From positions 36,825 to 100,824 of the forward strand of contig CAYJQR010000001.1 in the NCBI GenBank assembly GCA_964372345.1: a stretch of 64,000 nt of DNA, read 5' to 3'. A program made the position numbers and the translations under genes. Positions 1 to 62,373 of the stretch are shown here, one piece after another. The notes below the pieces were generated by a model. It was not told the origin of the DNA and made no database searches. It worked only from the letters and a program-made list of their open reading frames with translations. This stretch comes from an uncultured Planctomycetia bacterium (GTDB lineage Bacteria; Omnitrophota; Gorgyraeia; JACOVV01). The first letter of the stretch is position 1; every line of letters begins with the position of its first letter.

Positions 1-1034
1 AGACAAAAGATCTGGTTCACTTCACCCGTCAGTTGGCTACCCTTGTTTCCGCCGGACTCCCTCTTTTAAAAGCCCTTCGCACCTTGTATGACCAGCTTGA
101 AAAAGGTTATCTCAAAGAGGCGGTCGGAGAGGTTTGTAAAGAGATCGAGGGAGGAACTCATTTTTCGGCCGCCCTCTCCAGATATCCCAAGGCGTTTCCT
201 GAACTCTTTGTCAACATGGTGCGCGCCGGGGAACAGGGGGGGATGCTGGATACTATTTTAAAGCGGCTCGCGGAATTTCTGGAAAAACAGCAGCGGCTGG
301 TTGAGAAGGTCCGCGCCAGCATGATGTATCCTTCTTTTGTCATGGGGATCGCCGTTCTCATTCTGGTTCTGTTGATGATTTTCGTCGTCCCCACCTTTAC
401 CTCCATGTTCCAGGAATTAGGAGGAGCTCTCCCCTTGCCGACCCAGATTTTAATCACACTGAGCGAATTAATCCGGCATTTCTGGTATGTTCTTTTATTT
501 CTCCCTTTCGGCGCGGGGACTCTCTATCGGTGGCTCACGGCCTCTCCCGGCCGGCGCTACTATGTTGATAAGGTTAAACTGAAACTGCCGGTCGTCGGCG
601 TCCTGATGAACCAGGTCTCGGTGGCCCGTTTTTCCAGGACGCTGGGGACTCTTCTTTCCAGCGGCGTCCCGATTTTGGGGGCGCTCGATACCGTCCGCAA
701 CGTTGTCGGCAATGAAGTCGTGGCGCGGGCGATTGGCAGGGTGCGTGAGTCCATTCGCGAAGGAGAAAGTGTGGCAGGCCCTTTGGAGAAATCGAATGTC
801 TTTCCTCCTCTGGTCATCAAGATGGTCGCTGTCGGAGAAGAGACGGGCCAACTGGATAAAATGCTGGTCCAGATCGCGGATTCCTACGAGGAAGAAGTGG
901 ACGTCGCCGTTAACGGGCTCACGGCGTTACTGGAGCCGTTCCTGATCGTCACGATGGGGCTTTTGGTCGGTTTCATCGTTGTCTCGATGTTCTTGCCGCT
1001 GTTTAGTTTGACGAGATTGGTGGGAGGGGAATAA
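1..1034 (+). CDS. Type II secretion / type IV pilus platform protein, GspF/PilC family. 5' partial: the reading frame is open to base 1.
   Basis: The translation has GspF-family motifs (FTRQLATLVSAGLPLLKAL, two polytopic membrane repeats) and the C-terminal domain is complete. The frame continues upstream of the first Met with no stop. Confidence 0.85.
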   Translation, partial: TKDLVHFTRQLATLVSAGLPLLKALRTLYDQLEKGYLKEAVGEVCKEIEGGTHFSAALSRYPKAFPELFVNMVRAGEQGGMLDTILKRLAEFLEKQQRLVEKVRASMMYPSFVMGIAVLILVLLMIFVVPTFTSMFQELGGALPLPTQILITLSELIRHFWYVLLFLPFGAGTLYRWLTASPGRRYYVDKVKLKLPVVGVLMNQVSVARFSRTLGTLLSSGVPILGALDTVRNVVGNEVVARAIGRVRESIREGESVAGPLEKSNVFPPLVIKMVAVGEETGQLDKMLVQIADSYEEEVDVAVNGLTALLEPFLIVTMGLLVGFIVVSMFLPLFSLTRLVGGE

Positions 1035-1470
<436 letters not shown>

Positions 1471-1474: not shown

Positions 1475-2121
1475 GTCCAAATACAGAGAATGGAAAATGG
1501 AAAATGGAAAATGGATTTAGGAATTTGTTTTTCCCATTCTCCATTCTCCATTCTCCATTCTCCGCTTTTACATTGCTGGAACTTCTGATCGCCATGACGA
1601 TTCTAGTGGTGATTCTAACCAGCACTTACACTCTTTTTCGCAGCGCCTCGGGGGCCTTCTTAAAAGGGGAAGTGCGGTCGGAACTGTATCAGCAGGTCCG
1701 GATTATCTTTGGTGTGGCGGAACGCGAGATCAGCTCGGCGCTCCCTGTGCCGGGAAAGGATCGTTATTTCCAGGGAAGCGAAGACCGGCTCTTCTTTATC
1801 TGTCCCGTTTCTGAACAGGACAAAGCGGACTTAAGAGAGGTCGGTTACTGGTTGTCGAATGAAGATCAGACGCTGATGCGCCACGTGGATACCGACCCGG
1901 ATTTTGATTTCACCACGGCTGACACGAATGAAGAACTTGGGGTCCATATCCAGCGGCTGGCGTTTTCTTATTATGACGGAGAAAAATGGGGAAACTCCTG
2001 TGATTCGCAGATCGAGCAGGGGCTCCCGAAGGCGGTTAAAATGGAAATAACCATTGGGGATAGTCGTGGGAAAGAGAAGAGTGAGTTCTCAACGATTGTG
2101 CGGATTGAGACAAACCAGTAA
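1471..2121 (+). CDS. Minor pseudopilin (GspJ-like).
   Basis: Has a prepilin-like segment AFTLLELLIAMTILVVILTSTYTLF with Glu at +5. Its leader is again encoded by the heptamer element. The -1 residue is Ala/Ser rather than Gly. There is a 4-nt overlap with the upstream gene. Confidence 0.65.
1487..1562. repeat. Heptamer inverted-repeat miniature element, copy A2.
   Basis: Sequence is agaatggaaaatggaaaatggaaaatggatttaggaatttgtttttcccattctccattctccattctccattctcc. The core is nearly identical to A1, including the ggatttaggaatttgttttt spacer. Confidence 0.85.
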
Positions 2122-5100
2122 AACGTACGACGTACGACGTACGACGTACGACGAATCTGGGATCGCTCTCATTATCGTCGTCAGTGTCCTCGCGATCGCC
2201 GGCGTGATGGCGGTCAGTTTTGCCTTCAGCCAGCGGTTGGAGCTGAAAGCGGCGGTCAACTACCAGCTCTCCGTCAAGGCGGGGTATATCGCCGAAGCCG
2301 GAATTCGCCACGCGGTGCAATTGTTAAAGGAAGACAAAGGGGTTAACGCCTACGACGCCTACTCGGAGCTGTGGGCGGCCAATTTTCAGGGCGAAGACGT
2401 TGACAACAATGGGGACGGCGCGGCCGATTCCCGATGGTTCGACTTCACGGAAGAAGGGGAGACGATAGGGCGTTACGCGGTATGGGTGGTTGACGAGGCG
2501 GGAAAGGTTAACCTGAACGCCGCTGGTTTTTACAATACTTCTCCTTTGAAGATCACGGAGGGATGGACTCCTTTCGAAGTGAGTCTTGAGAAATTATTGG
2601 ATGGTTTGACCGTGAGCAACGCTAAAGGATTGATGGAATCCATCCTTGATTATCGTTACGGAGGAGAGAGGGGACTCAAAGGAGGAATGGATAGCAGGGA
2701 TAATGATTTGGACGGATTGACGGATGAAAAAGGTTATCCCGGAAAAGATGACGATTCTTTCGACGATAATGGAAACGCGCGAGTCTTGGCTTATGACGGG
2801 ACCGATAATAACGCGGATGGAGTCCGCGATGAGCCCAATGACGGGATCAATGAACCGATGGAGTACAATCCCTGGGAACCGTACGCGGATGACCGGGTTT
2901 TCTTGACTACGGAACAGATCAAGGGGGTGGAGGGGGTCACGGAAGACGTTTTTCAAAAAATCCGGAACTTTGTAGGGACCCACTCCGCGGATAAGGAATT
3001 AAATTCTTATTCCAGGAATAGAATCTGCCTGAATCTGGCGACGGTGGATCAATTGTACAAAACCTTTCGTGAACGTGGAGTGGGACAACCGGCCCTCAAG
3101 GCGGTCCGGCTGAAGGATTGGCTGGACGCCGATTTGGAGCGGAGCAGTATCGTCAGGTTTGTCAAGGATCTGCCGGTTTCCGATCTTGGCAGCATTGGGG
3201 AGTGGAAGTGGGAAGGGGCTTATTATGCCAACAAAATTCCGGGGAGTGAACCCGGTCGGTGGCGGTGGATCGGTATCCCGGAAGGAAAATATTATGTGAC
3301 CTTGCTGGCGGATAAGCCGAACGACGTCGTTGGAGACGTCACGATCGCCGGTGAAGTGGTTCAAGAGATGAAACACGGAGACGCGTTTGTGACGGCAGAT
3401 TCCAACACGGTGTCTATCGGAGGCGATAGGAGCCTGACGGTGACGATCCAAAATAATCGGCAGGGAGAAGGGAGCGAGTGCCGTTTTCAAAAGATAGAGT
3501 TAGAACCGCAGGAAGGAATCCCCGCCGGCTTTAAGTCGGCGCCGGTTTATGGAGTGGAGGGGGTCAGGATCAACGAGCTGATGGTGAGGCCGATGGTGGA
3601 ACTGAATGTCAACCAGGGTCATGACCCTGGAGGGGACTGGAATTTCGAAGAGAATGGTTACGTCAACAGGAAACCGGCGGGGGGGACCATCGGAGAAGGG
3701 GTCTGGGAGTGGGAGGGCGTTCCTAATGGAACTTACTATGTGAATCTTTACGGGAAAGAAGACGGCAAGCCGGTCGGGGATGTGGAGATTAAGGGGAAGA
3801 AGAGTAGCCATTTTAAATCGGGAGGGAGATTCTCAGACACGGTAACGGTTTCCGGGGGATACTTAAGAATCGAAATCCAAAACAATGAAGAAAGCGAAAA
3901 CTGTGCTTTTTCCAAGGTGCGGCTCAGCCAGCAGCCGGATGATGAATACATCGAGTTAATCAACATTTCCCAGGATCCGATTTCGGTGGCGGGTTGGACC
4001 CTCGAGGGACCGGGCCCCGAAGGATGGCCGGCGACGATTCCGATTGAAACGGAACCGATTCCGTCGGGGGGGTATTTGGTTCTGGCGGTTGATTTGAATG
4101 ACAGCCAAACCGGCGTCTCAGGGAATGGGATCGCTTTCCATAAGAATAAGAACTGGGCCGAAGTTGACAACGCGGCGCAATTGCTGTTCAAGAATTCCGT
4201 CTCAGAGACAGGGGATCTCCTGAAAGACGGGCTTCAAATAGGATCGGAAACAGTCCGTCTGAAAAACACGGACGGCCAGGTGGTGGACGAAGCGGAATAT
4301 ACCTCTTATCCGGAGGCGAACAAGAGTTTAGAGCGGGCCAATCCCGCCGAAGACGCGGATTCCAACTCTAACGGCATCCAGGACGGGTTCTATACCACGA
4401 CCGGCCCCGGCGGCGGAACGCCCGGTAAAGAAAACAAGAACGTGGGATTGATTAAGGAATACAACGAATTCAACGACCCTGTTTACTACGATATCAACAA
4501 GGAGATCTGGATCAGGAATCGGCCTCTTCCTAACCTGGGGGTCCTCTCTGAACTTCCGATGCCAGGATGGACTCGTTGGAACTTGAGAGATCTGGGTTTT
4601 TTTGTGGACGATATCACTCTTCACGCGCAAAGATTGGAAGCCGAAGGACATCAACAAGAGGTCTCAGGATGGGCGGAGGTTCAACAGAGCGATCCATCGT
4701 CGAGCATTTTTCGTAGTCAACGGCTTGAAGAAGTGGGAGAATGGAGATGGGACAAGACCGATTTACTCAAGAACGGCTATTACACTCTGCGAATCTTCGG
4801 CAAGCCGGGACAGGGGGTACAGTGTTCCATCCGGTTGAAGGATGGAACATGGACGGAGTTTACCCCGGCGCTGACTCCGTCCAGCGATGGGAGTGTTGTC
4901 TATGGCGTGATTGGGATTGGCACCGGTGAGGAGACCGCCGTGGGAAAAAGGGTTCTCTCCCTGAAGCTGAAAAACGCTTCAGCGTCGGGAACAGCGACGT
5001 TTGACTACATCACGCTGGAGCCGTTCCCGGTGGTCTATGGAAAAATTAATCTCAACACGGCCCCTTCGGAGGTTCTGCAGGCGCTGCCTGGAGTGGATCA

Positions 5101-5350: not shown

Positions 5351-6945
5351 GAAAAACGGAAAATGGAAAATGGAAAGTGGAAAGTGGGAAAGACAAAAAT
5401 CCATTTTCCGGGTTTTATGTCTTGTTGATTGTTTTTGCTTTATCCATTTTCCATTCTCTATTTTCCATTTTCCCTGTTTACGCCGAGGCCAGCAAAAGTT
5501 CCAAGTTCACTCTCGATGCCGGAGGATTTGTTTCTGGAGGGGGCAGCGCTGAAAGCCCGACAATCAAATCTCAAGCCGGAAACCTGGGAGATTTCGCGGG
5601 AACAACCACCACCGCGACTTCCTCTGGAACTTCCTCATCGGGCGCGGCTTCCGCCGTGACTACGGTGAATCCGGGGCTTCTCCAGGTCATCGTGGGAGAA
5701 GGCGCTCATAGTGATTATCCTTTTGATATCAAGGAAATCATTGCTAAGGATTCTCCCATGGGAAGCGCCATCACTGCCGCCGACTGGCAGAAGGATAATG
5801 ATCCCTATTTCTACTGGACGGTTTATGGTCCGCCGGAAGGAGTCATCGGTTACAGTTTTGCTCTGAACGCGATTCCCGATGAAACAGTGGATGTGAGCGA
5901 TTCCAGTTTTTCCTATGCCGGGAAGAATATCTCCGACGGCAAGCATCTTTTCCGTGTCATTGCCCAGAGCGCCGCCGGCAAATGGGGAAGAGAAGGGGCT
6001 TTTGAAATCTGGATTGACGCGACGGCTCCATCGGTGGTTTCCTTTAATCCCGGGAACAAGGCCCTGCTGAATACGGCGACACCCCAGATCCAAGTCGCTT
6101 TAAAAGATGCTGACAGCGGCGTCAACCCGGATTCCGTTGTTTTAAAGGTGAATCGCGCCACGGTTGAGGTCCCTTTTGACGACCAACAGGGGGGCGTTAC
6201 TTACACGCCTGCTTCTCCGCTAAAAGAGGGGATTAATTCGATCACGTTCGACGCGCGGGATAAAACAAATAACGTCGCGGCGACTCTAGTCTGGAGCTTC
6301 ACCATTGATACCCAAGCGCCCGGCGGAAGCGTCGTCATCAATAACGGCGACGCGTCCACCACTTCTACCTCAGTCAAATTGACGCTCGCTGCGGAAGACG
6401 CGACGACTTCGGTTAAAGAGATGATGATCAGTAATCAACCTGATTTCGGCGGGGCGCGCTGGGAACCTTTCGTTGGTTTGAAAGATTCGTGGACACTCTC
6501 TCCGGTCAGCGGGGAACGGGCTGTCTATGTTAAATTTAAAGATGAAGCGGGCAATGAATCCGGCGCCTACAGCGACCCCATCGAATTGGTGATCATCGCT
6601 CCGGACACAACCATCACCAGCGGCCCTTCCGGGGTCACCGATCAGACAGCGGCGGCTTTCACTTATTCCGCTTCTGAGTCCGGCAGTTCTTTCAGGCGTC
6701 AAATTGACGGGGGGGATTGGTCGGAGTGGGGGACTGAAACCTGGGTGACGTTCACCGATCTTAAAAGGGGAAATCACTATTTCGGCGTCAAGGCCGGTAA
6801 AGATGTGGATGGCAATGGCACGATTGACGCCGACGAGGAAGATCCGACCCCCGCGACGCGAAGCTGGACGATCAGTGAAAGCGGCGGAACAGAAGCGATT
6901 AACTTACCACCGGAAAAGCCAGTGAAATATTGGTACAAAGAATAG
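5347..6945 (+). CDS. Secreted protein with Ig-like/Big-like beta-sandwich repeats. Possible pilus-associated adhesin or T2SS substrate.
   Basis: The N-terminal signal peptide is largely encoded by heptamer element A3 (hydrophobic core FYVLLIVFALSIFHSLFSIFPVYAEA). The sequence is Thr/Ser-rich with repeated modules reminiscent of bacterial Ig-like domains. The ATGA start overlaps the upstream gene. Confidence 0.5.
   Translation: MRKTENGKWKVESGKDKNPFSGFYVLLIVFALSIFHSLFSIFPVYAEASKSSKFTLDAGGFVSGGGSAESPTIKSQAGNLGDFAGTTTTATSSGTSSSGAASAVTTVNPGLLQVIVGEGAHSDYPFDIKEIIAKDSPMGSAITAADWQKDNDPYFYWTVYGPPEGVIGYSFALNAIPDETVDVSDSSFSYAGKNISDGKHLFRVIAQSAAGKWGREGAFEIWIDATAPSVVSFNPGNKALLNTATPQIQVALKDADSGVNPDSVVLKVNRATVEVPFDDQQGGVTYTPASPLKEGINSITFDARDKTNNVAATLVWSFTIDTQAPGGSVVINNGDASTTSTSVKLTLAAEDATTSVKEMMISNQPDFGGARWEPFVGLKDSWTLSPVSGERAVYVKFKDEAGNESGAYSDPIELVIIAPDTTITSGPSGVTDQTAAAFTYSASESGSSFRRQIDGGDWSEWGTETWVTFTDLKRGNHYFGVKAGKDVDGNGTIDADEEDPTPATRSWTISESGGTEAINLPPEKPVKYWYKE
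5358..5473. repeat. Heptamer inverted-repeat miniature element, copy A3. It is longer than A1/A2 and has exact terminal inverted repeats GGAAAATGG ... CCATTTTCC.
   Basis: Sequence runs ggaaaatggaaaatggaaagtggaaagtgggaaagacaaaaatccattttccggg ... ccattttccattctctattttccattttcc. The interior has a nested palindrome (aagacaaaa / ttttatgtctt). Confidence 0.8.
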
Positions 6946-6980
6946 CGTATAGCGGTCAGCGTTCAGAAAAGACTTTTTAA

Positions 6981-7013
6981 CTGTACCCTGAACCCTGTAC
7001 CCTGTACCCTGAG
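6981..7013. repeat. (CCCTGTA/CCCTGAA) heptanucleotide tandem repeat, intergenic.
   Basis: Sequence is ctgtaccctgaaccctgtaccctgtaccctgag. A related copy cccctgtcccctgtaccctgaaac sits at 31974-31997. Confidence 0.85.
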
Positions 7014-7019
7014 TGCTAT

Positions 7020-12664: not shown

Positions 12665-15370
12665 ATGCTGAGCTGGATTCTTAAAAAAATTGTCGGTACC
12701 CAGAATGAAAGAGAATTGCGCCGGTTGATCCCCGCGGCGCAAAAGATCAACGCTTTAGAACAGGAGATTCAGAAGTTATCCGATGAAGAACTCCGGAATA
12801 AAACCGAAGAATTTAAAGAACGGTTGGTTAAGAAAGTGGGCCCTGAGAAACTCTATCTCAGGCGAAAGCACTCGCCGGTGTTGGTGGAAAAAGGAGACGC
12901 GGAGTATGAAGAATACCATGCGGCGCGCGAGGCGATTCATAGCGCTTTAAACGAACTCTTGCCGGAAGCGTTCGCGGTGGTGCGGGAGGCGGGGCGGCGC
13001 GTGCTCAAAATGCGCCATTTTGACGTCCAGTTGATCGGCGGCATTGTTCTTCACCAAGGAAAAATCGCGGAGATGGCCACCGGCGAGGGAAAAACGCTCG
13101 TGGCGACCCTGACGGTTTATCTGAACGCGCTCACCGGAAAAGGGGTGCATGTCATCACGGTCAACGATTATCTGGCGCGGCGAGACCGCGCCTGGATGGG
13201 GCCGTTGTATGAATTTCTGGGACTGACGATCGGCGTGATCCAGCATGATATGGATCCCGAGGAACGCAAAAAAGCGTACGCCTGCGATATCACCTACGGG
13301 ACGAACAACGAGTACGGTTTTGATTATCTGCGCGACAACATGGTCATTCGCAAAGAGGACAGGGTCCAGCAAAGGGGACTGCACTACGCCATCGTTGATG
13401 AAGTGGACAGCATCCTGATTGACGAGGCGAGAACGCCGCTCATCATTTCCGGGCCGGCGGAGGAATCCACGGAGAAATATTACGTGATTAACCGGATCAT
13501 CCCGCGGCTTGAGAAAGAAAAAGATTATCAGATTGACGAGAAAGCCAATACGGTCAATCTCACCGAAACAGGAATTCATCAAGTGGAAGAGATGCTGGCG
13601 GTCAAGAATCTTTATGAAGACGTGAATATGGATCTAGTTCATCATGTGAATCAGGCGCTCAAAGCGCATACTCTTTTCCAGAAGGATGTGGACTACGTGG
13701 TGAAAGACGGAGAGGTGCTTATCGTTGATGAGTTTACCGGCCGTTTAATGCCGGGGCGGCGGTACTCCGACGGCCTTCATCAGGCGCTTGAAGCGAAAGA
13801 AGGGGTCGCCATTGAACGGGAAAACCAGACGCTGGCGTCCATTACTTTCCAAAACTATTTCCGCATGTACGATAAACTGGGTGGAATGACAGGGACGGCG
13901 GCGACGGAAGCCCAAGAATTTCACGCGATTTACAAATTGGATGTGGTTGTGGTTCCGGCGAATAAACCGATGAAACGGACTAATCATCCGGACGTCATTT
14001 ACCGGACCGAGCGGGAGAAATTCAACGCCGTCATCGCTGAAATCGCCCAGCTTTACAAAGAAGGGCGGCCGGTGCTGGTCGGAACCATTTCCATTGACAA
14101 GTCCGAGAAACTGAGCGCCCTATTGACACGGAAAGGAATCCCGCACCACGTCCTCAACGCGAAATACCACGAGAAAGAAGCCGAGATCATCGCGCGGGCC
14201 GGGCAGAAATTCTCCGTTACGATCTCTACCAACATGGCGGGCCGGGGAACCGACATCATTCTGGGGGAAGGAATCGCCGGCCTTGGAGGATTGCATGTTT
14301 TAGGGACGGAGCGCCATGAAGCGCGGCGGATTGATAACCAGCTTCGAGGAAGATCAGGGCGTCAAGGAGATCCCGGATCGAGCCGGTTTTATCTTTCGTT
14401 AGAGGATGATCTGATGCGGATTTTTGGCGGTGACCGGATTTCTGGAATGATGTCAAAACTAGGAATGGAAGAGGGGCAGGACATTCAGCATCCTTTAGTC
14501 ACCCGTTCCATCGAAACCGCGCAAAAACGGGTAGAGTCGAGAAACTTTGAAATACGAAAACATCTTTTGGAATACGATAACGTAATGAATAAGCAGAGAG
14601 AAGTGATTTACCAGGAAAGAAATGAAGTGATCGAAGGAGAAGATCTACGCTCACACGTTCTTGAAATGATCGAAGAGGCGATCCGGAATACTTTCGGCCG
14701 TTATGTGAACCCGCAGGTGGCGCCGGATCAGTGGGATCTGGCCGGGTTAACCGAGTGGGCGAGAAGAGGGCTGGGACTGCGGTGGGAAACGGCGAAAGAG
14801 TCGGGTTTAGAGGCGAGGCAAATCGAAGCGTCATTACTGGAGGGGGCTTTAAAATCGTATCAGGAAAAAGAGGAACAGCTGACCGCGGAACTGATGCGCC
14901 AGTTAGAGAGAAGCGTTTTATTGCAGATCATTGATTCCAAATGGAAAGACCATCTCTACGCGATGGACAATCTTCGGGAGGGGATCGGACTCAGGGCTTA
15001 TGGTCAGCGGGATCCGCTGGTGGAGTATCAGCATGAGGCGTATATCATGTTCACCGACATGGTGGAGTCGGTCAAACAGGAATCGGTGGAGATGCTGATG
15101 AAAGTCCAGTTGATGCGACGGGAACCCAAGCCGGCGCGCGGCATATTGGAGACGATTCCTCAGAAACTGGTTCATGAGACCCCCTCCGCTCTGGCGGGAA
15201 ATCCGTTGAAATCGGTGGAAGAGGCGATACCGGGGAGCGGGGCCCCATCGGCGAAATCAATGCTCGGCGGCCCGCAGCCGGTCCACCGCCAGACTCCCAA
15301 GGTGGGGCGCAATGATCCCTGCCCCTGCGGGAGCGGGAAGAAGTACAAGAAATGCTGCGGGGCTGTTTGA
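12665..15370 (+). CDS. secA: Preprotein translocase ATPase SecA.
   Basis: The full-length 901 aa product has DEAD-motor motifs ([33 protein letters not shown]) and the C-terminal zinc-binding tail [14 protein letters not shown]. Confidence 0.95.
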
Positions 15371-15372
15371 AA

Positions 15373-16935
15373 ATGAATGTATTATCGGCGCTACTACTTG
15401 TTCTTAGTTATCCCCCCTTTAATTTCTGGTGGCTGGCGTGGCTTGGATTGATTCCGTTATTCACTTCACTCACCAAAACAAAGGATAGTAAACAATCATT
15501 TCTTCGGGGGTATCTCTTTGGTTTTCTTTTTTGGCTGGGAACTATTGGGTGGGTGGGCTACGTCACTATTTTCGGCGCCTTGATGCTGATCCTTTATTTA
15601 TCTCTTTATTCAGGTATCTTTGGATGGATTTTTTGGCGATTATGGAAGAAAAAAATTAGAGATTTTCGATTCATTCTGCTCATTTCTGGCGCGTGGACAA
15701 TCCTGGAATGGATTCGTTCTCATCTCTTCACTGGTTTTGGTTGGAATCTCTTGGCGTATTCCCAGGCGCCGAATCTACCGGTGATCCAAATCGCGGATCT
15801 CGTCGGGGCGTTTGGGGTGTCGTTTTTGGTGGTGTGGGTGAATGGGGCATTATTTTTGGCTAGGAGCTGGGAGCTAGGAGCTGGGAGCAAAGGCAAAATC
15901 AAAAGTTTTTTCTCCCAGCTCTTAGCTCCTAGCTCTCAGTTGACTTTTCTTCTGGTTATTCTCGTTTGTTCCTACGGTTTCTATCGTCTCAACGAAAAGA
16001 TACCCACAATTCCCGTCTCGATTGCTGTGATCCAAGGAAACGTCCCGCAAGACATCAAATGGGAAGATCAGTATCGTGAAGCGCTATTTCAACGGTATGA
16101 ACTCTTGACAAAAACGGCGACCTTGGATCATCCGCAGTTAGTCATCTGGCCGGAAACTTCCATCGTGGAAGATTTCAGCAATCCTGAGATTCAGAACCGA
16201 ATCGCCGGCATCGCCAGAGAGGCAAACAGTTTTCTCTTGGTCGGCGCTCCCTGGTCGAGTCAAACATCGGAAAATGGAAAATGCCCGCCGGAGGCGGGTC
16301 TGCCTCTTCAGCCGAAGGCTGATCAGCCTCAGGCTGAGGCAGAGAAAATAGAAAATAAAGAAGACATCGGCGGGCACTATTTCAACAGCGCTATTTTATT
16401 TGATCCTGAGGGGAACCTCGTTCAGAAATATGACAAACTCCATTTGGTTCCCTATGGTGAGTTTATTCCTTTTGAGAAACAATTCCCGTTTCAACGGAAC
16501 TGGATCGTCACCGGAGATTTTACTAGTGGGAAAGAACACACGGTCTTTACTACTCCCAGCTCCCTTCGACTTCGCTCAGGGCAGGCCCAGCTCCCTTCGA
16601 CTTCGCTCAGGGCAGGCCCAGCTCCTAGCCAGGTGGGTTTTTCCGTCTTGATCTGTTTCGAAGACCTCTTTCCTGATTTAGTTCGTCAATTTGTCAAGAA
16701 AGGGGCGCGGCTTCTGATCAATATTTCCAACGACGCGTGGTTTGGTGAAAGCGGCGCGGCGTTTCAGCACGCGCAGGCGTCTGTTTTTCGCGCGGTAGAG
16801 AACCGGGTCCCGGTGGTGCGGGCGACGAATACCGGTTTCAGTTGTTTCATTGATTCCCGCGGCCGTATTTATGAAAAGGCGCCGCCGTTTAAGACAGGAT
16901 ATCTCACAGCAAAGGTGGAAATCCCGAGCACTTGA
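15373..16935 (+). CDS. lnt: Apolipoprotein N-acyltransferase, carrying three in-frame repeat-element insertions.
   Basis: It has an N-terminal polytopic membrane domain plus a CN-hydrolase domain with a Glu (VIWPETS), Lys (YDKLHLVPYGEFIP) and Cys (ICFEDLFP) triad. The start was moved to ATG 15373 (MNVLSALL), which overlaps the secA stop. Confidence 0.85.
   Translation: MNVLSALLLVLSYPPFNFWWLAWLGLIPLFTSLTKTKDSKQSFLRGYLFGFLFWLGTIGWVGYVTIFGALMLILYLSLYSGIFGWIFWRLWKKKIRDFRFILLISGAWTILEWIRSHLFTGFGWNLLAYSQAPNLPVIQIADLVGAFGVSFLVVWVNGALFLARSWELGAGSKGKIKSFFSQLLAPSSQLTFLLVILVCSYGFYRLNEKIPTIPVSIAVIQGNVPQDIKWEDQYREALFQRYELLTKTATLDHPQLVIWPETSIVEDFSNPEIQNRIAGIAREANSFLLVGAPWSSQTSENGKCPPEAGLPLQPKADQPQAEAEKIENKEDIGGHYFNSAILFDPEGNLVQKYDKLHLVPYGEFIPFEKQFPFQRNWIVTGDFTSGKEHTVFTTPSSLRLRSGQAQLPSTSLRAGPAPSQVGFSVLICFEDLFPDLVRQFVKKGARLLINISNDAWFGESGAAFQHAQASVFRAVENRVPVVRATNTGFSCFIDSRGRIYEKAPPFKTGYLTAKVEIPST
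15859..15939. repeat. SWELGA-type palindromic element, copy B1, inserted in frame in lnt.
   Basis: Sequence is gctaggagctgggagctaggagctgggagc, a 24-nt interior, then ctcccagctcttagctcctagctctcag. It encodes ARSWELGAGSKGKIKSFFSQLLAPSSQL. A second copy sits in metG at 38848-38932. Confidence 0.8.
16269..16357. repeat. Composite miniature element in lnt: (GGAAAAT)2, a GC hairpin cccgccggaggcggg, a GGCTGATCAGCC-type palindrome, then (GAAAATA)2.
   Basis: Heptamers bracket two hairpins. It encodes ENGKCPPEAGLPLQPKADQPQAEAEKIENKE in frame. A sister copy sits in metG at 38472-38540. Confidence 0.8.
16555..16625. repeat. 31-bp direct tandem repeat (2.3 copies) inside lnt.
   Basis: The unit cccagctcccttcgacttcgctcagggcagg is repeated. 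It encodes SSLRLRSGQAQLPSTSLRAGPAPS in frame. Confidence 0.85.
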
Positions 16936-16974: not shown

Positions 16975-17286
16975 ATGGAAGAGCTCTCCCAGTGTGTTGG
17001 TTTTGAGTGGGATAAGGGAAATAGCCAGAAGAACTGGCTAAAGCATCATGTCAGTCCGATGGAGTGTGAAGAATTATTTCTAAATCGGCCGCTGGTGCTT
17101 GCCGAGGATGTAAAACATTCCCATCAAGAAAAACGTTATTACGCTTTAGGGCAGACGGATATGAAGCGGTTTCTTTATATTGTATTTGTTCTCCGAAACC
17201 GATATGTCCGAGTGATCTCTGCCAGAGACATGAGTCGAAACGAAAGAGAGGCATATCTCAATGACGAAAAGAAAACAAATCCCTAA
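16975..17286 (+). CDS. brnT: BrnT-family toxin (DUF497 ribonuclease toxin).
   Basis: The 103 aa product has the N-terminal WDxxKxxxNxxKHxV signature (FEWDKGNSQKNWLKHHVS) and R/ISAR-like C-terminal residues (VISARDMSRNE). Confidence 0.8.
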   Translation: MEELSQCVGFEWDKGNSQKNWLKHHVSPMECEELFLNRPLVLAEDVKHSHQEKRYYALGQTDMKRFLYIVFVLRNRYVRVISARDMSRNEREAYLNDEKKTNP

Positions 17287-17542
17287 TTTTCGATCCGAAG
17301 ATGAGGAACGGCGATTCTGGGATTCCCATGATTCGACTGGTTACATTAATTGGAAAAAAGCTAAGCGAATAACGTTCCCGAACTTAAAACCATCAACCCG
17401 GACAATTTCTCTGCGGCTGCCGGAATCCATGCTGGAAGAATTGAGACTCTTGGCGAATAAGCAGGATGTCCCCTATCAGTCGCTCATGAAAGTATTCCTA
17501 GCGGAAAAGATAGGAGAAAAATTAGGAACTTACAAAGCATGA
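17261..17542 (+). CDS. brnA: BrnA-family antitoxin (CopG/RHH-like).
   Basis: The 93 aa product overlaps the brnT 3' end. Its C-terminal ribbon-helix-helix segment (SLRLPESMLEELRLLANKQDVPYQSLMKVFLAE) is typical of BrnA. Confidence 0.75.
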   Translation: MTKRKQIPNFRSEDEERRFWDSHDSTGYINWKKAKRITFPNLKPSTRTISLRLPESMLEELRLLANKQDVPYQSLMKVFLAEKIGEKLGTYKA

Positions 17543-20940: not shown

Positions 20941-21649
<709 letters not shown>

Positions 21650-31187: not shown

Positions 31188-31248
31188 CGCCTCAGCCAAA
31201 GGCTGATCAGCCTCTTCAGCCAAAGGCTGATCAGCCTCTGGCTGAGGC
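31188..31248. repeat. GGCTGATCAGCC-type palindromic/tandem element, copy C2, intergenic.
   Basis: Sequence is gcctcagccaaaggctgatcagcctcttcagccaaaggctgatcagcctctggctgaggc. The unit is duplicated inside terminal inverted repeats. It is related to the element inside lnt at 16290-16345. Confidence 0.8.
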
Positions 31249-31272: not shown

Positions 31273-31995
31273 ATGGTTCAAGCGATTGTTCCAGCGGCCG
31301 GAAAAGGAGAGCGGCTCGGAGCTAATGTCGAAAAGCCGTATGTTTTACTGGCGGGGATACCGCTGATTGTCCACACGCTGAAGGGGCTGGAGTCGGTCAA
31401 GGAGATTGATTCGATTGTTCTCGTCGTCAGCCGTGAGTGGCTCCGGAGAGTCCGCGAAGAAATCCTGGAGCGTTATCGTCTGAAACGAATCGCGGCGGTG
31501 GTTGAGGGAGGAGCTACCCGCATGGAATCGGTCTACGCGGGGTTGTCTTCTTTGAATCAAAAAACTCGATGGGCGCTTGTCCATGACGCGGCAAGGCCGT
31601 TGGTCAGGAAGGATGAAGTTTCAAAACTCATCCAGTCGGCGTGGCGAACCGGGGCGGTTTGTCCCGGCGTCACGCCTAAGGATACGACAAAGAGAGTGAG
31701 TGAAAAGGGCTGGGTTAAAGAAACCTTGGATCGGCGCCGGCTCCGCGCCGTTCTGACTCCGCAGGTGTTCCGCAGAGATATTCTGGTGAAGGCGTATGAA
31801 CTGGCGTTTGCCAAAGGATACAGCGGCACGGATGACGCCTCATTAGTCGAGCGGATGGGGGTTAAGGTTAAGGTTGTTGAAGGAGATCTGGAAAATATTA
31901 AAATTACCACGCCGGAAGATTTATTGCTGGCGGAAGCAATTTTAAAGCGGAGAGATAAGGGCAGGGTTCAGCGTCCCCTGTCCCCTGTACCCTGA
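31273..31995 (+). CDS. ispD: 2-C-methyl-D-erythritol 4-phosphate cytidylyltransferase.
   Basis: AIVPAAGKGERLG is the IspD signature. About 240 aa. Confidence 0.9.
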   Translation: MVQAIVPAAGKGERLGANVEKPYVLLAGIPLIVHTLKGLESVKEIDSIVLVVSREWLRRVREEILERYRLKRIAAVVEGGATRMESVYAGLSSLNQKTRWALVHDAARPLVRKDEVSKLIQSAWRTGAVCPGVTPKDTTKRVSEKGWVKETLDRRRLRAVLTPQVFRRDILVKAYELAFAKGYSGTDDASLVERMGVKVKVVEGDLENIKITTPEDLLLAEAILKRRDKGRVQRPLSPVP

Positions 31996-37082: not shown

Positions 37083-38059
37083 GCCAACAAACGGCGGTTT
37101 GGCTTTTTAAGAGAGCTCTCCGGGAGGAAAAGCTAGCCCACGCTTATCTTTTGACCGGGCCCGACGGCGTCGGTAAGAGAACTCTCGCTCAAGAGGCTGC
37201 GAAGGGACTGAACTGCCGGCTGGTTCATACCCAACTCGAGACTCGAGACTCGAGACTCGAGACTGAAGAAAATTGGCCCTGCGATTCCTGTCGCGAGTGC
37301 CGGCTGATCGAATCGGGACAGTACGCGGACGTCACTTTATTGACTCCTGAAAATAAAACTCTTAAGATCGAAGCCATTCGCCGCCTCCAACAGGCGGTGG
37401 CGCTGAAACCGTACGAAAGCCGTTTCCGTGTCGCGATTATTCAGGATGTGGACCAATTAACCCCCGACGCCGCCAACGCTTTCCTAAAAACGCTGGAAGA
37501 ACCGCCGCAGGGCGTTTTCTTTTTTCTAACGACCCAATACCGGGAGAGAGTTTTCGCGACGATTCAATCCCGTTGCCAGGTTGTCTCTCTGAAAGCCATT
37601 TCTAAAGAGATATTGGAGCGGAAGATGATCCCTCGTTCGGTGATTTCCTTGGCCCAGGGAAGTTTCGGCAGGGCAGACTATTGGATGGATCCCGAAGTGG
37701 GAGAGAGAAGAAAAAAAATCTTATCGGCGTTTTTCTTAAACCATTCTCTCGACGATATCAACGAAAAGGTATCCAGCAAAGAGGAGGAACGCCTGCTGAT
37801 GGAGGAAAAACTCCTTCTTCTGCAGAGCGGGCTTCGGGATTTAATCGTCTGGAAGAAAACAAAAGACGAGGCATTGCTCATTCATCGGGATTACCGGGAG
37901 CAAATCAGTCATTTTGCCTCCCGATTTGAGATGGACACTCTAGAAGATAAAATTATTTCTTTGGAACAGTTGACTCAAGGATTAGACCGCAGCGCTAACC
38001 TAAAACTAACCCGGGCGGTTCTGGAACTTGAGCTGGCGGACCTGACAAAGGCAGAATGA
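37061..38059 (+). CDS. holB: DNA polymerase III delta-prime subunit, with an in-frame heptamer tract.
   Basis: HAYLLTGPDGVGKRTLA, a Zn module (CDSCRECRL) and an SRC motif. 332 aa. It follows tmk as in Bacillus. Confidence 0.85.
   Translation: MSFSNILGQQTAVWLFKRALREEKLAHAYLLTGPDGVGKRTLAQEAAKGLNCRLVHTQLETRDSRLETEENWPCDSCRECRLIESGQYADVTLLTPENKTLKIEAIRRLQQAVALKPYESRFRVAIIQDVDQLTPDAANAFLKTLEEPPQGVFFFLTTQYRERVFATIQSRCQVVSLKAISKEILERKMIPRSVISLAQGSFGRADYWMDPEVGERRKKILSAFFLNHSLDDINEKVSSKEEERLLMEEKLLLLQSGLRDLIVWKKTKDEALLIHRDYREQISHFASRFEMDTLEDKIISLEQLTQGLDRSANLKLTRAVLELELADLTKAE
37235..37266. repeat. (CTCGAGA)4 heptanucleotide tandem repeat inside holB.
   Basis: Sequence is ctcgagactcgagactcgagactcgagactga. 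It encodes LETRDSRLETE in frame. Confidence 0.9.
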
Positions 38060-39774
38060 ATCGATACTACGTTACCACTCCTCTTTATTACGTCAACGAC
38101 AAACCCCATATCGGCCACGCCTATACCGAGATTGCGGCGGACACAATCGCTCGTTACCGTCGGTTCAGAGGGGATGAAGTTTTCTTTTTGACCGGGACCG
38201 ATGAGCATGGACAAAAAATCGAGCAGGCGGCTAAAAAAGCGGGGATGCCGGCGAAGGATTTCGCGGATCAGGTGGCTCCGCGTTTTTCGGAAGTATGGAA
38301 ACTTCTGGGGATCAGCTACGATTATTTTTTAAGGACGACGGAGCCAAGACATATTCAAACAGTGCAGAAGGTATTATCGCTCCTTTTTGAAAAAGGAGAT
38401 ATCTACATTTCTGAATACGAAGGATGGTATTGTACTCCCTGCGAGACGTTCTGGACGGAGACGCAGCTTGAAGAACAGAAAATGGAAAATGGAAAATGCC
38501 CACCGGAGGCGGGTTCGCCTCTGGCGAAGAAAATGGAAACGCCTGTTTGCATTGACTGCAAAAGACCGATTGAAAAAATCACGGAGAGTAATTACTTCTT
38601 TCGGTTATCGAAATATCAAGAGTGGCTGATGGACTACATCAATAGCCACCCTAAGTTTATCCAACCGGCAACGCGGCGGGAAGAAATCTTGAGTTTTTTG
38701 AAACAGCCGTTGAATGATCTCTGCATCTCACGTCCCAAACAGAGACTTGCATGGGGAATTCCGATTCCGTTCAGTCAAGATCATGTCACGTATGTGTGGT
38801 TTGACGCATTGATTAATTATATTAGTGGAATCGATTATCTTGAATGGGCTAAGAGCTGGGAGCTAGGAGCTAGGAGTGAAAACTCGGATTCTACCTCGCC
38901 AGCTTCCAGCTTCCAACTTCTAGCTTCTAGCCGTTTTTCAAAATTCTGGCCGGCCGATATGCACTTAATCGGCAAAGACATCCTTCGCCCTCACGCCGTC
39001 TACTGGCCCATCATGCTGCGCGCTCTCGGAATAGAACCCCCTAAACAGGTTTTTGCTCACGGCTGGTGGACGATGCAAGAGGAAAAAATGTCGAAATCCA
39101 AAGGAAATATCGTTGATCCGGTGGACGTCTGCGCCCGCTATGGCGTGGACGTTTTTCGTTATTTCCTTCTAAGAGAGGTGACCTTTGGGCTGGATGGCGC
39201 TTACTCGGAGGGGGCGTTGACTTTGAGGTTTAACAGTGATTTAGCCAACGATCTTGGTAATTTGTTTCATCGAACCCTGACGATGGTGGAGAAATACTAT
39301 GGGGGGAAAGTACCCCAGGTAGAACAGAAGGACGAGGGACGAAGGACGAGGGACGAAAGGAAATATATCCCAGAAGACTTAATCGTTCTTCTTCGATCTC
39401 TTCCGGATCGTTTGGATCAAGCGATGGAGGATCTTGATTTCGCGCGCGCTCTTTCCGCCATCTGGGAGTGCGTCAACCGGGCCAATAAATTGATTGAAGA
39501 AGTGAAACCGTGGGTTTTAGACAGGGAAAACGACCGGGAAGGGTTAAATCAAGTCATCTATTTTTTGGTGGATCTATTACGGATCATTACTCTGGCGGTG
39601 GCCCCCTTCATGCCGCGCGCGGCGGAAAAGATGTGGAAACAATTGAACCTTCCCTCGAAGTTAGAAGCGATGGGTTTTGAGGATTTGGCTCCTGGAAAAA
39701 CCGTCGGCGGTTTCCATGTGAACAAGGAAGAACCGCTCTTTCCCCGATTAGACACTAAGAAAGGAGACCGTTAA
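38056..39774 (+). CDS. metG: Methionine--tRNA ligase, carrying three in-frame repeat insertions.
   Basis: Has HIGH (PHIGHAY), KMSKS and Zn-knuckle cysteines (CTPCE...CIDCKRP). The product is 572 aa. Confidence 0.9.
   Translation: MNRYYVTTPLYYVNDKPHIGHAYTEIAADTIARYRRFRGDEVFFLTGTDEHGQKIEQAAKKAGMPAKDFADQVAPRFSEVWKLLGISYDYFLRTTEPRHIQTVQKVLSLLFEKGDIYISEYEGWYCTPCETFWTETQLEEQKMENGKCPPEAGSPLAKKMETPVCIDCKRPIEKITESNYFFRLSKYQEWLMDYINSHPKFIQPATRREEILSFLKQPLNDLCISRPKQRLAWGIPIPFSQDHVTYVWFDALINYISGIDYLEWAKSWELGARSENSDSTSPASSFQLLASSRFSKFWPADMHLIGKDILRPHAVYWPIMLRALGIEPPKQVFAHGWWTMQEEKMSKSKGNIVDPVDVCARYGVDVFRYFLLREVTFGLDGAYSEGALTLRFNSDLANDLGNLFHRTLTMVEKYYGGKVPQVEQKDEGRRTRDERKYIPEDLIVLLRSLPDRLDQAMEDLDFARALSAIWECVNRANKLIEEVKPWVLDRENDREGLNQVIYFLVDLLRIITLAVAPFMPRAAEKMWKQLNLPSKLEAMGFEDLAPGKTVGGFHVNKEEPLFPRLDTKKGDR
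38472..38540. repeat. Composite miniature element in metG: AGAACAG, (AAAATGG)3, hairpin cccaccggaggcggg, hairpin ttcgcctctggcgaa, then GAAAATGGAAAC.
   Basis: It encodes ENGKCPPEAGSPLAKKME, inserted between the two CxxC pairs of the MetRS zinc knuckle. It is a sister of the lnt copy at 16269-16357. Confidence 0.8.
38848..38932. repeat. SWELGA-type palindromic element, copy B2, inserted in frame in metG.
   Basis: Sequence is gctaagagctgggagctaggagctaggag ... ccagcttccagcttccaacttctagcttctagcc. It encodes AKSWELGARSENSDSTSPASSFQLLASS. Confidence 0.8.
39321..39360. repeat. (GAAGGAC/GAGGGAC) heptamer tandem repeat with an AGAACAGAA left terminus, inside metG.
   Basis: Sequence is agaacagaaggacgagggacgaaggacgagggacgaaagg. 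It encodes KDEGRRTRDERK in frame. Confidence 0.85.
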
Positions 39775-55920: not shown

Positions 55921-56825
55921 ATGAGTTCAGTTTCATCAAAAGACTTTCCCAATCCATCAAGACAAATCGCTCAGTCATCGTCGGGATTGGGGATGACGCG
56001 GCGGTTCTTCAATATAAGAAAGACCGCTATCTTCTTTTTACGACTGACATGATCGTGGAAGGAACGCATTTCCTTTTAAAGAGCGCGGCTCCTTATCAAA
56101 TCGGCTGGAAGGCGATGGCGGTGAACCTGAGTGATATTGCGGCCATGGGAGGATTGCCTCGATGGGCGGTGGTGTCGCTGGGGGGGCCGTTTCAAAGACG
56201 GAAAATGGAAAATGGAAAATGGAAAATAGAAGAATTTGTCTGGGAAATTTACCGAGGGATGAGCGCGGTGGGCAAGAAATTCGGCGTTCAGATTGTGGGA
56301 GGGGATACCGATAAGGCGGACCGGTGGACGATCAACATCGCGCTATTGGGAGAAGTAGAAAAAAAATATCTAAAACTTCGCTCAGGAGCGAAAGTGGGTG
56401 ATCGGGTCTTTGTCACGGGTTCACTCGGCGGCTCGATTCATGGGAAACACCTGACTTTCATTCCTCGAGTCAAAGAGGCCCGCTATTTAGTCACTCATTA
56501 TCCGGTGACCAGCATGATGGATCTCTCGGACGGCCTGGCGAGCGACCTTTGCCGGATCATGGAGCAGAGCAAGGTTGGAGTCCTGATTGATGAAGAAAGA
56601 ATCCCTCTTTCAAAAGAGGCAAAGGACTCGCGAAGCGCTTTCTGCGATGGGGAAGATTTTGAATTATTATTTACGGTGCCAAAATCCGCGGGCGAAAGAT
56701 TAGAGAGGAACGTCCCCTGGGCGCGTCTGATTGGAGAAGTGACGCCTGCTTCGCGAGGACTACGGATGAGAGATCGAACTGGGCAGGTGCGGACGGTCGC
56801 ATGGAAAGGGTTCGAGCACTTCTAA
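55917..56825 (+). CDS. thiL: Thiamine-monophosphate kinase, carrying an in-frame heptamer insertion.
   Basis: An AIRS-family N-terminus (FSFIKRLSQ...GIGDDAAVL). The insert RRKMENGKWKIEEF sits at 56200-56232. Confidence 0.75.
   Translation: MNEFSFIKRLSQSIKTNRSVIVGIGDDAAVLQYKKDRYLLFTTDMIVEGTHFLLKSAAPYQIGWKAMAVNLSDIAAMGGLPRWAVVSLGGPFQRRKMENGKWKIEEFVWEIYRGMSAVGKKFGVQIVGGDTDKADRWTINIALLGEVEKKYLKLRSGAKVGDRVFVTGSLGGSIHGKHLTFIPRVKEARYLVTHYPVTSMMDLSDGLASDLCRIMEQSKVGVLIDEERIPLSKEAKDSRSAFCDGEDFELLFTVPKSAGERLERNVPWARLIGEVTPASRGLRMRDRTGQVRTVAWKGFEHF
56200..56232. repeat. (GGAAAAT)3.5 heptamer array, copy A5, inside thiL.
   Basis: ggaaaatggaaaatggaaaatggaaaatagaag. Confidence 0.85.
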
Positions 56826-61107: not shown

Positions 61108-62373
61108 ATGAAACGCGATATTCAAAGTCTGGCTCTAGCGGATAAGGGAAAAGACCGTATCGAGTGGGCGGGACAAAGTATGCCGGTTGTTCTTTCGATC
61201 CGCAAGGATTTCTCCAGCGCCAAACCGCTCAAGGGAGTGAGGATCGGCGCTTGTCTTCACGTGACTTCCGAAACAGCCAATCTGATGATCACTTTGAAAG
61301 AAGGGGGAGCCCATGTTTCTCTCTGCGCGTCGAATCCGCTGAGCACTCAGGACGACGTGGCCGCTTCGCTGGTGAAACATTACGGCATCCCGGTCTTCGC
61401 CGTCAATGGAGAAAATTCAAAACGGTATTACCGTCATATTCAGGCGGTTCTGGCCGCCAATCCACAGGTCACTATGGACGATGGAGCCGATTTAATCTCA
61501 ACCCTCCACCGAACTCAAAACTCGAAACTCGAAACTCAAGACTCAATCTGGGGTTCTACTGAGGAAACAACAACAGGAGTCATTCGTCTCAAGAGTTTGG
61601 AAAAAGCAGGGAAACTTCGGTTCCCGGTCATCGCGGTCAATGAAGCACAAACCAAACATCTTTTCGACAATCGCTACGGCACAGGCCAGTCAACGCTCGA
61701 TGGCATTATCCGGGCGACGAATCACCTGATCGCCGGGCAAATATTCGTCGTGGCCGGCTATGGCTGGTGCGGCAAAGGGGTGGCGATGCGCGCCAAGGGA
61801 TTAGGGGCGCAGGTGGTCGTTACTGAGATAGAACCGCTCCGGGCATTGGAAGCGGTCATGGACGGCTTTTCCGTCAAGACGATGGCCGAGGCGGCTCGAA
61901 TTGGCGATATCTTTGTAACGCTGACCGGAGACCGCGACGTGATCAGAAAAGAACATTTCCTAAAGATGAAAGACGGAGCAATTCTTGCCAACTCAGGGCA
62001 TTTCGACATTGAAATTGATATTGCGGCCCTGAAAAAACTGAGCCGGAGAACCCGCAGAATCCGTTCGTTTGTGGATGAGTATGTTTTACGGGGTGGAAGG
62101 AAGATTTACGTTCTTGGGGAAGGCCGCCTCGTCAACCTAGCGGCGGCAGAGGGGCATCCTGCCAGTGTCATGGATTTAAGTTTTGCCAATCAATCGCTGT
62201 CAGTAGAATATGTGGTTTCTCACCACGAGGAATTAAGAAATAAAGTCTATGCGGTTCCTGAAGAGATTGATCGTAGTATCGCTCAATTAAAGTTACGGGC
62301 AATGAAAATTTCCATTGACGCTTTGACGCGGGAACAAAGAGATTATCTGAAGTCGTGGCAGCTTGGGACGTAA
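61108..62373 (+). CDS. ahcY: Adenosylhomocysteinase, carrying an in-frame heptamer tract.
   Basis: An NAD-binding GYGWCGKG. The 421 aa product has the insert [11 protein letters not shown]. Confidence 0.9.
61512..61549. repeat. (AACTCGA/AACTCAA) heptamer tandem repeat inside ahcY.
   Basis: aactcaaaactcgaaactcgaaactcaagactcaatc. Same ACTCGAR family as the holB tract. Confidence 0.85.

Follow-up and report, generated by a model that had tools for sequence, protein, structure and literature searches.

How does the same short palindromic sequence come to lie, in frame, in two unrelated housekeeping genes? The question is raised by a 64-kb stretch of DNA (the window) from a Candidatus Omnitrophota bacterium, in which the open reading frames (ORFs) of apolipoprotein N-acyltransferase (lnt) and methionine-tRNA ligase (metG) each carry an insert, at 15859-15939 and 38848-38932, that encodes the peptide SWELGA. 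An earlier note on this DNA read the two inserts as copies of one palindromic mini-element with a preferred reading frame or codon context. Our analysis of the window suggests a different answer. The two sites probably belong to a population of heptanucleotide arrays in this Omnitrophota lineage, which would grow in place in tolerant loops of the encoded proteins, rather than being a discrete transposing element.

The two hairpin sites

At each site four GCTRGGA units are followed by a spacer, after which comes an inverted but imperfect arm (Table 1). Tandem Repeats Finder and our own scan give 4.1-4.7 units per arm, that is, a 7-nucleotide (nt) unit repeated head to tail at least three times. 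The 17-mer GCTGGGAGCTAGGAGCT occurs exactly at both sites and, with up to three mismatches allowed, has 8 matches against 0.17 expected, a number reached in none of 100 shuffles. Sequence and shuffles thus confirm the common sequence with an inverted partner that had been described at the two positions. The left arms are alike at 27 of 30 positions; past the arm, an alignment that includes the flanks has matches at scattered positions only. The right-arm units differ (TCCYAGC in lnt, TTCYAGC in metG), the loops cannot be aligned and the flanking sequences are unrelated. The proposal of one mini-element in both genes therefore holds as far as the unit, the arm-spacer-inverted-arm layout and the presence of extra sequence relative to homologues are concerned, but only the 30-nt left arm is alike. 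We looked for target-site duplications, flanking direct repeats and sharp termini at the lnt and metG copies and saw none.

The two copies also differ in how they fold. The lnt copy is a strong hairpin, with an RNA stem that spans 15856-15943 and a folding energy of -59.3 kcal/mol on the plus strand (z -8.9) against -42.9 on the minus strand, an advantage that arises via G.U pairs. The metG copy is weak as RNA (-39.2 kcal/mol, z -3.3; about -39 on both strands), and its DNA fold does not exceed that of shuffles (z -0.49). Its inverted arm has AGCTTCY as the heptamer instead, and the pairing relies entirely on G.U pairs or mismatches. Rfam covariance models gave no match in the whole window at gathering thresholds.

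Reading frame and encoded peptide

The in-frame location of the inserts is confirmed: both arrays begin at codon phase 0 of their ORFs. However, any heptamer array encodes one cyclic heptapeptide in all three frames, for example ARS*ELG for GCTAGGA and ENGKWKM for GGAAAAT, because 7 equals 1 modulo 3 and a frame shift of one base is the same as a shift of one unit. The shared peptide and the common phase therefore carry no information on frame or codon targeting, and a preferred frame is not borne out. SWELGA is the predicted product of the GCTRGGA unit alone, whatever its phase, and peptides such as SWELGA or ENGKWKM that are common to unrelated proteins of such genomes should not be read as domains or as signs of frame-specific insertion. 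The residue before SWELGA is R in one copy and K in the other (ARSWELGA, AKSWELGA), where A and K had been given. The statement that both copies follow tgggc is right for metG only, where the final gc already forms the first two bases of the array; the lnt copy follows TTTTTG, giving ttGGC.

The TAACTGA repeats translate to a repeating peptide broken by stop codons (MacGregor 2015; PMC4679880). In both copies studied here the sole left-arm unit with TAG in frame reads GCTGGGA, in which TGG encodes W, and in the right arms an in-frame position reads CAG or CAA, while out of frame TAG is mostly retained. The variable A/G (R) positions of the unit are best read as stop avoidance, TAG having given way to TGG or CAG. 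Replacement of every in-frame TAG of the ARS*ELG repeat (by TGG, CAG or CAA) shows, to judge by the codons, that the inserts are translated and not bypassed.

Period-7 arrays across the window

Our scan of the window found 13 arrays of at least three units at period 7 and none at periods 5, 6 or 8-15; shuffled sequences gave 0 arrays at periods 6-15 and 0.3 at period 5. Tandem Repeats Finder returned 40 rows, 23 of them with period 7. Of the 19 period-7 arrays in the window, 9 are built of GGAAAAT or its near-complement CCATTCT; the others use GCTRGGA/TCCYAGC, ACTCGAG/AACTCRA, CTGTACC, ACGTACG and GGACGAR, which makes about seven unit families in all. The GCTRGGA unit or its complement recurs at three loci (15859, 38848 and 16555-16625). 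Seventeen of the 19 arrays lie wholly within plus-strand ORFs, which cover 94% of the window, so that arrays are not excluded from coding sequence. Their hosts include holB, thiL, ahcY, a lolD-like ATPase gene, ispD and four pseudopilin or secretion-related genes.

Besides the SWELGA pair there are four inverted array pairs, at 1034-1118, 1489-1563, 5353-5473 and 6946-7019. The first two occupy equivalent positions in adjacent paralogous pseudopilin genes and align over about 75 nt without mismatch, loop included, between flanks that cannot be aligned. Gene conversion would be the simplest reading of this identity. The hairpin at 1034 is more stable as antisense than as sense RNA (-46.8 against -34.5 kcal/mol).

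Arrays in related genomes

Related loci from public data, labelled L001 and so on, were compared with the window. L001/L002 and L005/L006 are about 88-91% identical to it in DNA; for L003, L251, L127 and L250 the figure is roughly 80-85% wherever a DNA comparison was made, and L128 is more distant. The nearest proteins to MetG, Lnt and AhcY are metagenome proteins, followed further out by Candidatus Omnitrophota proteins.

Within metG, the site of the SWELGA hairpin (site A) holds a 4-unit array 9-10 nt after a conserved GAYTATCT in five genomes, the window and four relatives, each with its own unit (Table 1). MAFFT aligns the left arm of the window with the arrays of the relatives and leaves a single gap of 52 nt, which comprises the loop and the right arm. 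The left arm is identical to L127 at 20 of 27 positions (counted by eye on the alignment), and a GAGT variant in unit 4 is common to both. The simplest history at metG would be that a resident 4-unit array drifted to GCTRGGA and that an inverted copy was then added in the lineage of the window. The 52-nt lineage-specific addition, which creates the hairpin, points to an inverted duplication in situ. At metG site B the array is missing in L127 and shifted in L128, which argues for repeated gains in a permissive loop.

Unit drift at a fixed position is also seen in ahcY and thiL. The 35-nt slot of ahcY (window 61512-61546; L001 20058; L251 6409-6438; L250 1236-1266) holds ACTCRAR in the window, ACCCGAG x4 plus ACTCAAT in L251, ACGAAGT in L001 and CTCCAAG in L250. 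The last unit, ACTCAAT, is common to the window and L251, and the AhcY protein has 421 amino acids in the window, L001, L251 and the protein P0244. At the thiL site the unit is GGAAAAT in the window, GGAAAGT in L001 and GGAAGGT in L251. This is stepwise concerted change of units at fixed length, as expected of internally homogenising tandem arrays. A wholesale swap of units in ahcY had been considered as evidence of cassette replacement, but it is weakened by L251 and L250, which make a stepwise series.

The lnt site tells less. The SWELGA insert lies in a hypervariable linker after the region aligned to residues ~185-195 of E. coli Lnt. We take this linker to be the loop between transmembrane helices 6 and 7 (TM6-TM7). 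In L005, which is 88% identical, the same site (10490-10590) holds three unrelated in-frame GC-rich mini-hairpins, GGCAGGCCCCTGTGCCTGCC, TAGGGGCGAATAATTATTCGCCCCTA and GGGCAACCACGGGGGGTTGCCC, and the ancestry of the lnt site can therefore not be reconstructed. Elsewhere, the CTGTACC insert at 6946-7019 corresponds to only 6 nt between the same genes in L005 (987-992), and a CTGTACG array of L001 (8922-9004) is absent from the window junction at 37055-37061. These two differences are evidently recent gains or losses of segments of 70-85 nt.

In three places the window has GGAAAAT where a relative of about 89% identity has GGAAAGT in all or most units (38478, 56200 and 16269 in the window; L001 10423, L001 14757 and L005 10924). 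This may hint at concerted change across loci, or it may be chance, as only three loci are involved and the array at 5353 in the window has both variants.

Protein structural context

Solved structures of methionyl-tRNA synthetase (MetRS) have 3 residues where the window protein has about 28-34, an excess of ~28 amino acids. In an AlphaFold model of MetRS, made with 13 sequences (mean predicted local distance difference test, pLDDT, 73.8), pLDDT falls below 50 at residues 146-160, 273-291 and 426-433, within the three repeat-derived inserts, and also in four other short segments. At site A the low-pLDDT stretch covers the loop and right arm. The LolD-like protein has ~13 extra amino acids at its array relative to solved LolD, and AhcY only 3 relative to solved AdoHcyase, the ahcY array mostly overlaying native residues. 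In the pseudopilin genes the arrays are part of the leader peptide that precedes the N-methylation motif. Arrays, then, persist where the protein tolerates them.

Distribution of the unit in other phyla

The earlier note had proposed a genome-wide search for the 17-mer. We scanned species-representative genomes with a degenerate 22-mer (three GCTRGGA units) and metagenomes with a stricter 24-mer, and each scan gave at least 120 matches. Among the matches listed, the GCTRGGA/AGCTRGG unit occurs in more than 240 contigs from many phyla, a result that speaks for ubiquity and not for copy number in the present genome; those in genomes come from Gemmatimonadota, Acidobacteriota, Planctomycetota, Kangiellaceae, Xanthomonas, cyanobacteria and one Omnitrophica WOR_2 genome. 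Counting only arrays flanked on either side by 300 nt or more, the matches listed include 111 in genomes and 73 in metagenomes. Of these, 13 and 16, respectively, have an inverted partner within 150 nt, only 12 and 4 sit within an extended open frame, and many border on a start codon. Both unit and hairpin layout are thus widespread, and it is the in-frame coding location that is unusual here.

AGCTAGG/AGCTGGG arrays often end a few bases from a start codon in Gemmatimonadota, Acidobacteriota and others (L008, L021, L025, L032, L036, L086 and L097 among other loci). Each unit contains AGGAG, a motif like a Shine-Dalgarno sequence, and a role in translation initiation in those phyla is possible.

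Origin of the arrays

We propose replication slippage and conversion within the array as the source of new arrays and of their turnover. A selection filter would retain those of frame-keeping length and without stops in permissive surface segments of the protein. The inverted arm may have formed at the site itself when copying of the array already there switched strands (fold-back), giving a quasi-palindrome that would then decay or be partly corrected, and the encoded peptide would be a tolerated passenger. Several observations weigh against growth in place. GGAAAAT is found in 9 arrays and GCTRGGA at 3 loci, and such reuse of a few families is not what purely local slippage from random seeds predicts; the identity of the 1034-1118 and 1489-1563 hairpins between unalignable flanks indicates that a hairpin can be copied as a whole. 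At metG the positional homology amounts to 5/7 identity per unit in short low-complexity sequence, for which our own binomial estimate is p of roughly 0.01-0.04, and is suggestive. No relative compared has a heptamer array at the lnt SWELGA site, so that an origin in situ is unsupported there. Arrays and hairpins differ in presence between genomes of about 89% identity; no array differences were found in strain pairs of 99.8-100% identity, so high instability is not supported.

A non-autonomous mobile mini-element with heptamer-array arms, like a miniature inverted-repeat transposable element (MITE), a REPIN or a Rickettsia palindromic element (RPE), could instead have entered lnt and metG in separate events, mobilised in trans. 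Such an element would account for the same unit, architecture and phase in both copies of one genome, for the identical pseudopilin hairpins, for the presence or absence of arrays between close relatives and for the reuse of few unit families at many loci; the unit with its inverted partner in many phyla hints at horizontal spread, and a separate palindrome of 24-28 nt (described below) has clearly been inserted into the GGAAAAT arrays of lnt and metG, so tiny insertions do occur here. We nevertheless consider this explanation rather unlikely, given unrelated loops, right arms of different units, copies with neither target duplication nor defined ends, and a metG left arm that aligns with the resident arrays of relatives. 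The pseudopilin hairpins are most simply explained by gene conversion between adjacent paralogues, and the 15 window ORFs that were scanned, a minority of its ORFs, have no transposase-family Pfam domain. Another idea is that the arrays are more than passive products of slippage, and that a dedicated heptamer-specific process, a trans-acting enzyme or conversion between arrays, seeds and re-templates them and spreads a few units across loci and even phyla. The GGAAAAT/GGAAAGT difference at three loci, the spread of AGCTRGG with its inverted partner over more than 240 contigs among the matches listed, and about 7 units for 19 arrays are hints of it, and since such arrays encode the same peptide in any frame they could colonise coding sequence and make new loops, leaders and signal-peptide-like segments in essential proteins. 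We regard such a process as unlikely, and offer it as a speculation.

An improbable reading is that the repeats are selected as nucleic-acid structures, whether as a pause, stability or translation-control signal in mRNA or single-stranded DNA or as repeated binding sites for a protein that reads heptamers. The stronger sense fold of the lnt copy, the AGGAG in every unit and the many AGCTRGG arrays that abut start codons in other phyla are in keeping with it, as is the binding of heptamer repeats by CspB-type proteins (discussed in PMC4679880). Strand preference is inconsistent, however, the hairpin at 1034 being better as antisense and the metG copy equal on both strands; the metG copy as DNA does not exceed shuffles, orthologues lack the hairpin, loops are not conserved and Rfam has no match. 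Sense-strand RNA structure as a general rule is ruled out by the flip in strand preference between hairpins. That the similarity is due to chance, to misassembly or to a duplicated and recombined segment would be suggested by nothing more than the shortness of the shared stretch, and is extremely improbable. Shuffles never reached the observed count and the flanks of the two copies are unrelated genes, which also disposes of the duplicated segment that the earlier note had named as its refutation. MetG and AhcY of the window have identical counterparts among public proteins, and an Lnt on record matches exactly over 99% of the query. An independent Logan contig of 5.5 kb, identical to the window, has the same ahcY array.

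Comparison with known repeat systems

Heptanucleotides are the most abundant class of long simple sequence repeats (SSRs), and polymerase slippage has been proposed for them (PMC4692102, PMC4679880). Genome-specific heptamer families include the STRR of Calothrix and Nostoc, GGGAATC in Xanthomonas, with inverted pairs and variation among close relatives, and TAACTGA in Beggiatoaceae, for which the mechanism was "not evident" (PMC4692102, PMC4679880). The arrays in the window resemble these dispersed repeats (the long SSRs of Mrazek et al. 2007, STRR, GGGAATC and TAACTGA) in their 7-nt unit, in copy numbers of 2-6 or more and in the over-representation of period 7. They also resemble them in the reuse of few genome-specific units at many loci, in variation of length and sequence among close relatives and in occasional inverted pairs. 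The main departure is in location: the published families lie very largely between genes (of the ~170 TAACTGA sets, only 25 do not; coding SSRs are usually multiples of 3; PMC4679880), whereas 17 of our 19 arrays are read in frame within housekeeping genes, and several of these form hairpin pairs. An Omnitrophota host is a further difference. We class the SWELGA pair with the dispersed heptanucleotide repeats, a known kind; what is unusual is its home in the reading frames of housekeeping genes.

RPEs provide a second likeness, as palindromic inserts of ~100 nt that lie in frame at permissive sites of unrelated housekeeping genes and add a peptide segment tolerated by the fold (PMC10969869). 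RPE copies, however, have a full-length consensus and a conserved peptide and are not made of heptamer arrays, whereas the SWELGA copies share the simple-repeat arm only. With MITEs and REPINs the sites have in common that they are short dispersed inverted-repeat DNA without coding capacity. Unlike in MITEs, terminal inverted repeats with a target-site duplication were found at neither copy, and unlike in MITEs and REPINs the arms are tandem repeats that drift in place. Among the 15 window ORFs scanned, a minority of the total but with those of a 13-kb island included, none has a transposase-family Pfam domain or is a RAYT.

Small dispersed repeats nested in the heptamer repeats of Nostoc were reportedly described by Elhai and colleagues in 2008. 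The palindromes of 24-31 nt inside our arrays (16284-16307, 38499-38526, 16555-16625) are like these. The likeness is by description only and concerns the nested inserts, not the SWELGA arms, and the setting in Nostoc is cyanobacterial and mostly intergenic. Formation and correction of quasipalindromes by template switching (Ripley; Lovett) is a known mutational mechanism in E. coli and phage assays. An inverted copy of neighbouring sequence placed tens of nt away, giving an imperfect hairpin, would be a similar product, and such an event is what we infer for metG. We know of no description of template switching as a source of in-frame heptamer hairpins.

This lineage bears on why heptamers dominate long bacterial SSRs and on how genome-specific units spread. 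Dozens of its arrays lie in alignable conserved genes, some sites in related genomes are empty or shifted, units drift step by step while length stays constant, and one hairpin is seen after it gained its inverted arm, which makes the birth, turnover and inversion of heptamer arrays tractable by comparative genomics. The tolerance of essential enzymes (MetRS, Lnt, HolB, AhcY, ThiL and LolD) for translated simple repeats and strong mRNA hairpins parallels that seen with the RPEs of Rickettsia, and translated repeats are a possible source of new loops and of leader or signal sequences.

Other repeat inserts and neighbouring features

Table 1. Repeat features of the window and their host genes, with units at the same sites of related loci where compared.
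Feature	Position	Strand	Description
lnt ORF, apolipoprotein N-acyltransferase	15352..16935	+	TIGR00546, 1.3e-94; hosts copy 1 and two further repeat-derived inserts
lnt copy, left arm	15859..15888	+	(GCTRGGA) x4.3 = GCTAGGA GCTGGGA GCTAGGA GCTGGGA GC; peptide ARSWELGAGS
lnt copy, spacer/loop	15889..15911	+	23 nt, AAAGGCAAAATCAAAAGTTTTTT; no kinship with metG loop
lnt copy, right arm	15912..15939	+	CTCCCAGCTCTTAGCTCCTAGCTCTCAG, TCCYAGC-type units; peptide SQLLAPSSQ
lnt site 2	16269..16357	+	GGAAAAT array broken by CCCGCCGGAGGCGGGTCTGCCTCT (16284-16307) and two TCAGCC-NNN-GGCTGA mini-hairpins (16308-16337)
lnt site 3	16555..16625	+	AGCTCCC/AGCTCCT units, complementary to the SWELGA unit, with a 31-nt unit x2.3 (CTTCGACTTCGCTCAGGGCAGGC plus 7)
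metG ORF, methionine-tRNA ligase	38056..39774	+	PRK12267, 2.5e-209; hosts copy 2 and arrays at 38478-38498 and 39330-39356
metG copy, left arm	38848..38876	+	(GCTRRGA) x4 = GCTAAGA GCTGGGA GCTAGGA GCTAGGA G; peptide AKSWELGARS
metG copy, spacer	38877..38898	+	22 nt, TGAAAACTCGGATTCTACCTCG
metG copy, right arm	38899..38932	+	CCAGCTT CCAGCTT CCAACTT CTAGCTT CTAGCC, (CCAGCTT/CTAGCTT) x4.7; peptide PASSFQLLASS
metG site A, units			window, SWELGA hairpin; L001, CCACTAY x4; L003, ACTCACG x4; L127, ACGAGCY x4; L128, GGGTCAA x4.5
metG site B	38478..38539	+	(GAAAATG) x3 broken by CCCACCGGAGGCGGGTTCGCCTCTGGCG (38499-38526); L001, GAAAGTG; L003, GAAGCAA; L127, empty; L128, GRGGCAA ~20 nt upstream
metG site C	39330..39356	+	(GGACGAR) x3.9 in frame; L001, GAAGCAA; L003, GGACGAN; L127, none; L128, none
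Pseudopilin hairpin 1	1034..1118	+	(AAAATGG)5-TTTAGGAATTTGTTTTTC-(CCATTCT)4 in leader peptide
Pseudopilin hairpin 2	1489..1563	+	copy of hairpin 1 in next pseudopilin gene
GspK-like ORF array	2123..2153	+	(ACGTACG) x4.4 near N-terminus
Ig-like-domain protein hairpin	5353..5473	+	AAAATGG/AAAGTGG and CCATTTT units, longer hairpin, N-terminus
Intergenic insert	6946..7019	+	(CTGTACC) x4.4, short imperfect inverted partner
lolD-like ABC ATPase array	21137..21169	+	(GAAAATG) x4.7 in frame
ispD tail	31973..31994	+	GTCCCCT/GTACCCT array = C-terminal tail and stop codon; absent from L001
holB array	37234..37264	+	(ACTCGAG) x4.4 in frame; degenerate forms at same site in L001 and L003
thiL array	56200..56227	+	(GGAAAAT) x4 in frame
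ahcY array	61512..61546	+	(AACTCRA) x5 in frame

A second in-frame mini-insert is common to lnt (16269-16307) and metG (38478-38526). It reads GGAAAATGGAAAATG, then CCC(G/A)CCGGAGGCGGGT(CT/TC)GCCTCT, and forms a small palindrome of 24-28 nt (CCCRCCGGAGGCGGGT...) with the peptide ENGKCPPEAG(L/S)PL at the same point of the two GGAAAAT arrays. The GGAAAGT arrays of L001 and L005 are uninterrupted where the window has this insert, the array of L005 at lnt site 2 being a plain GGAAAGT x3, and CCGGAGGCGGGT was absent from all 248 loci fetched by that point. This palindrome would be a better candidate than SWELGA for a tiny mobile insert with a target preference. The 31-nt unit at lnt site 3, CCCAGCTCC CTTCGACTTCGCTCAGGGCAGG, is in frame within AGCTCCY units and encodes SSLRLRSGQAQLPSTSLRAG. 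Its length (31 = 24 + 7) suggests that a 24-nt insert may have been duplicated along with one heptamer.

The tandem TCAGCC-NNN-GGCTGA mini-hairpins lie in frame in lnt (16308-16337) and also upstream of ispD (31189-31248). There are 5 exact matches and one with a mismatch, against 0.1 expected, and the ispD copy is absent from L001.

Two of the arrays near N-termini have further features. The ATG start of the ORF at 1037 is supplied by the 1034 array itself. In the ORF at 5347-6945 the hairpin has a purine-rich arm, which encodes the charged ENGKWKVESGKDK, and a pyrimidine-rich one, which encodes the hydrophobic LSIFHSLFSIFPVYA. The two stretches together resemble a signal peptide, and the palindromic repeat may have made or extended an export signal.

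Directly downstream of lnt, at 16975-17542, are two small overlapping ORFs (103 and 93 amino acids), which by eye we take to be a candidate BrnT/BrnA-type toxin-antitoxin pair; the annotation of L006 has a 50-amino-acid CopG-antitoxin gene alone. The 13-kb island at 39817-53086 is absent from L001, where metG is directly followed by tatD. It carries genes for a DUF4143 ATPase, a DUF2130 protein, type I restriction-modification (HsdR, HsdM and HsdS), AbiEi/AbiEii and a TIR-domain protein of 1099 amino acids, and it is free of heptamer arrays, which the core genes around it do have.

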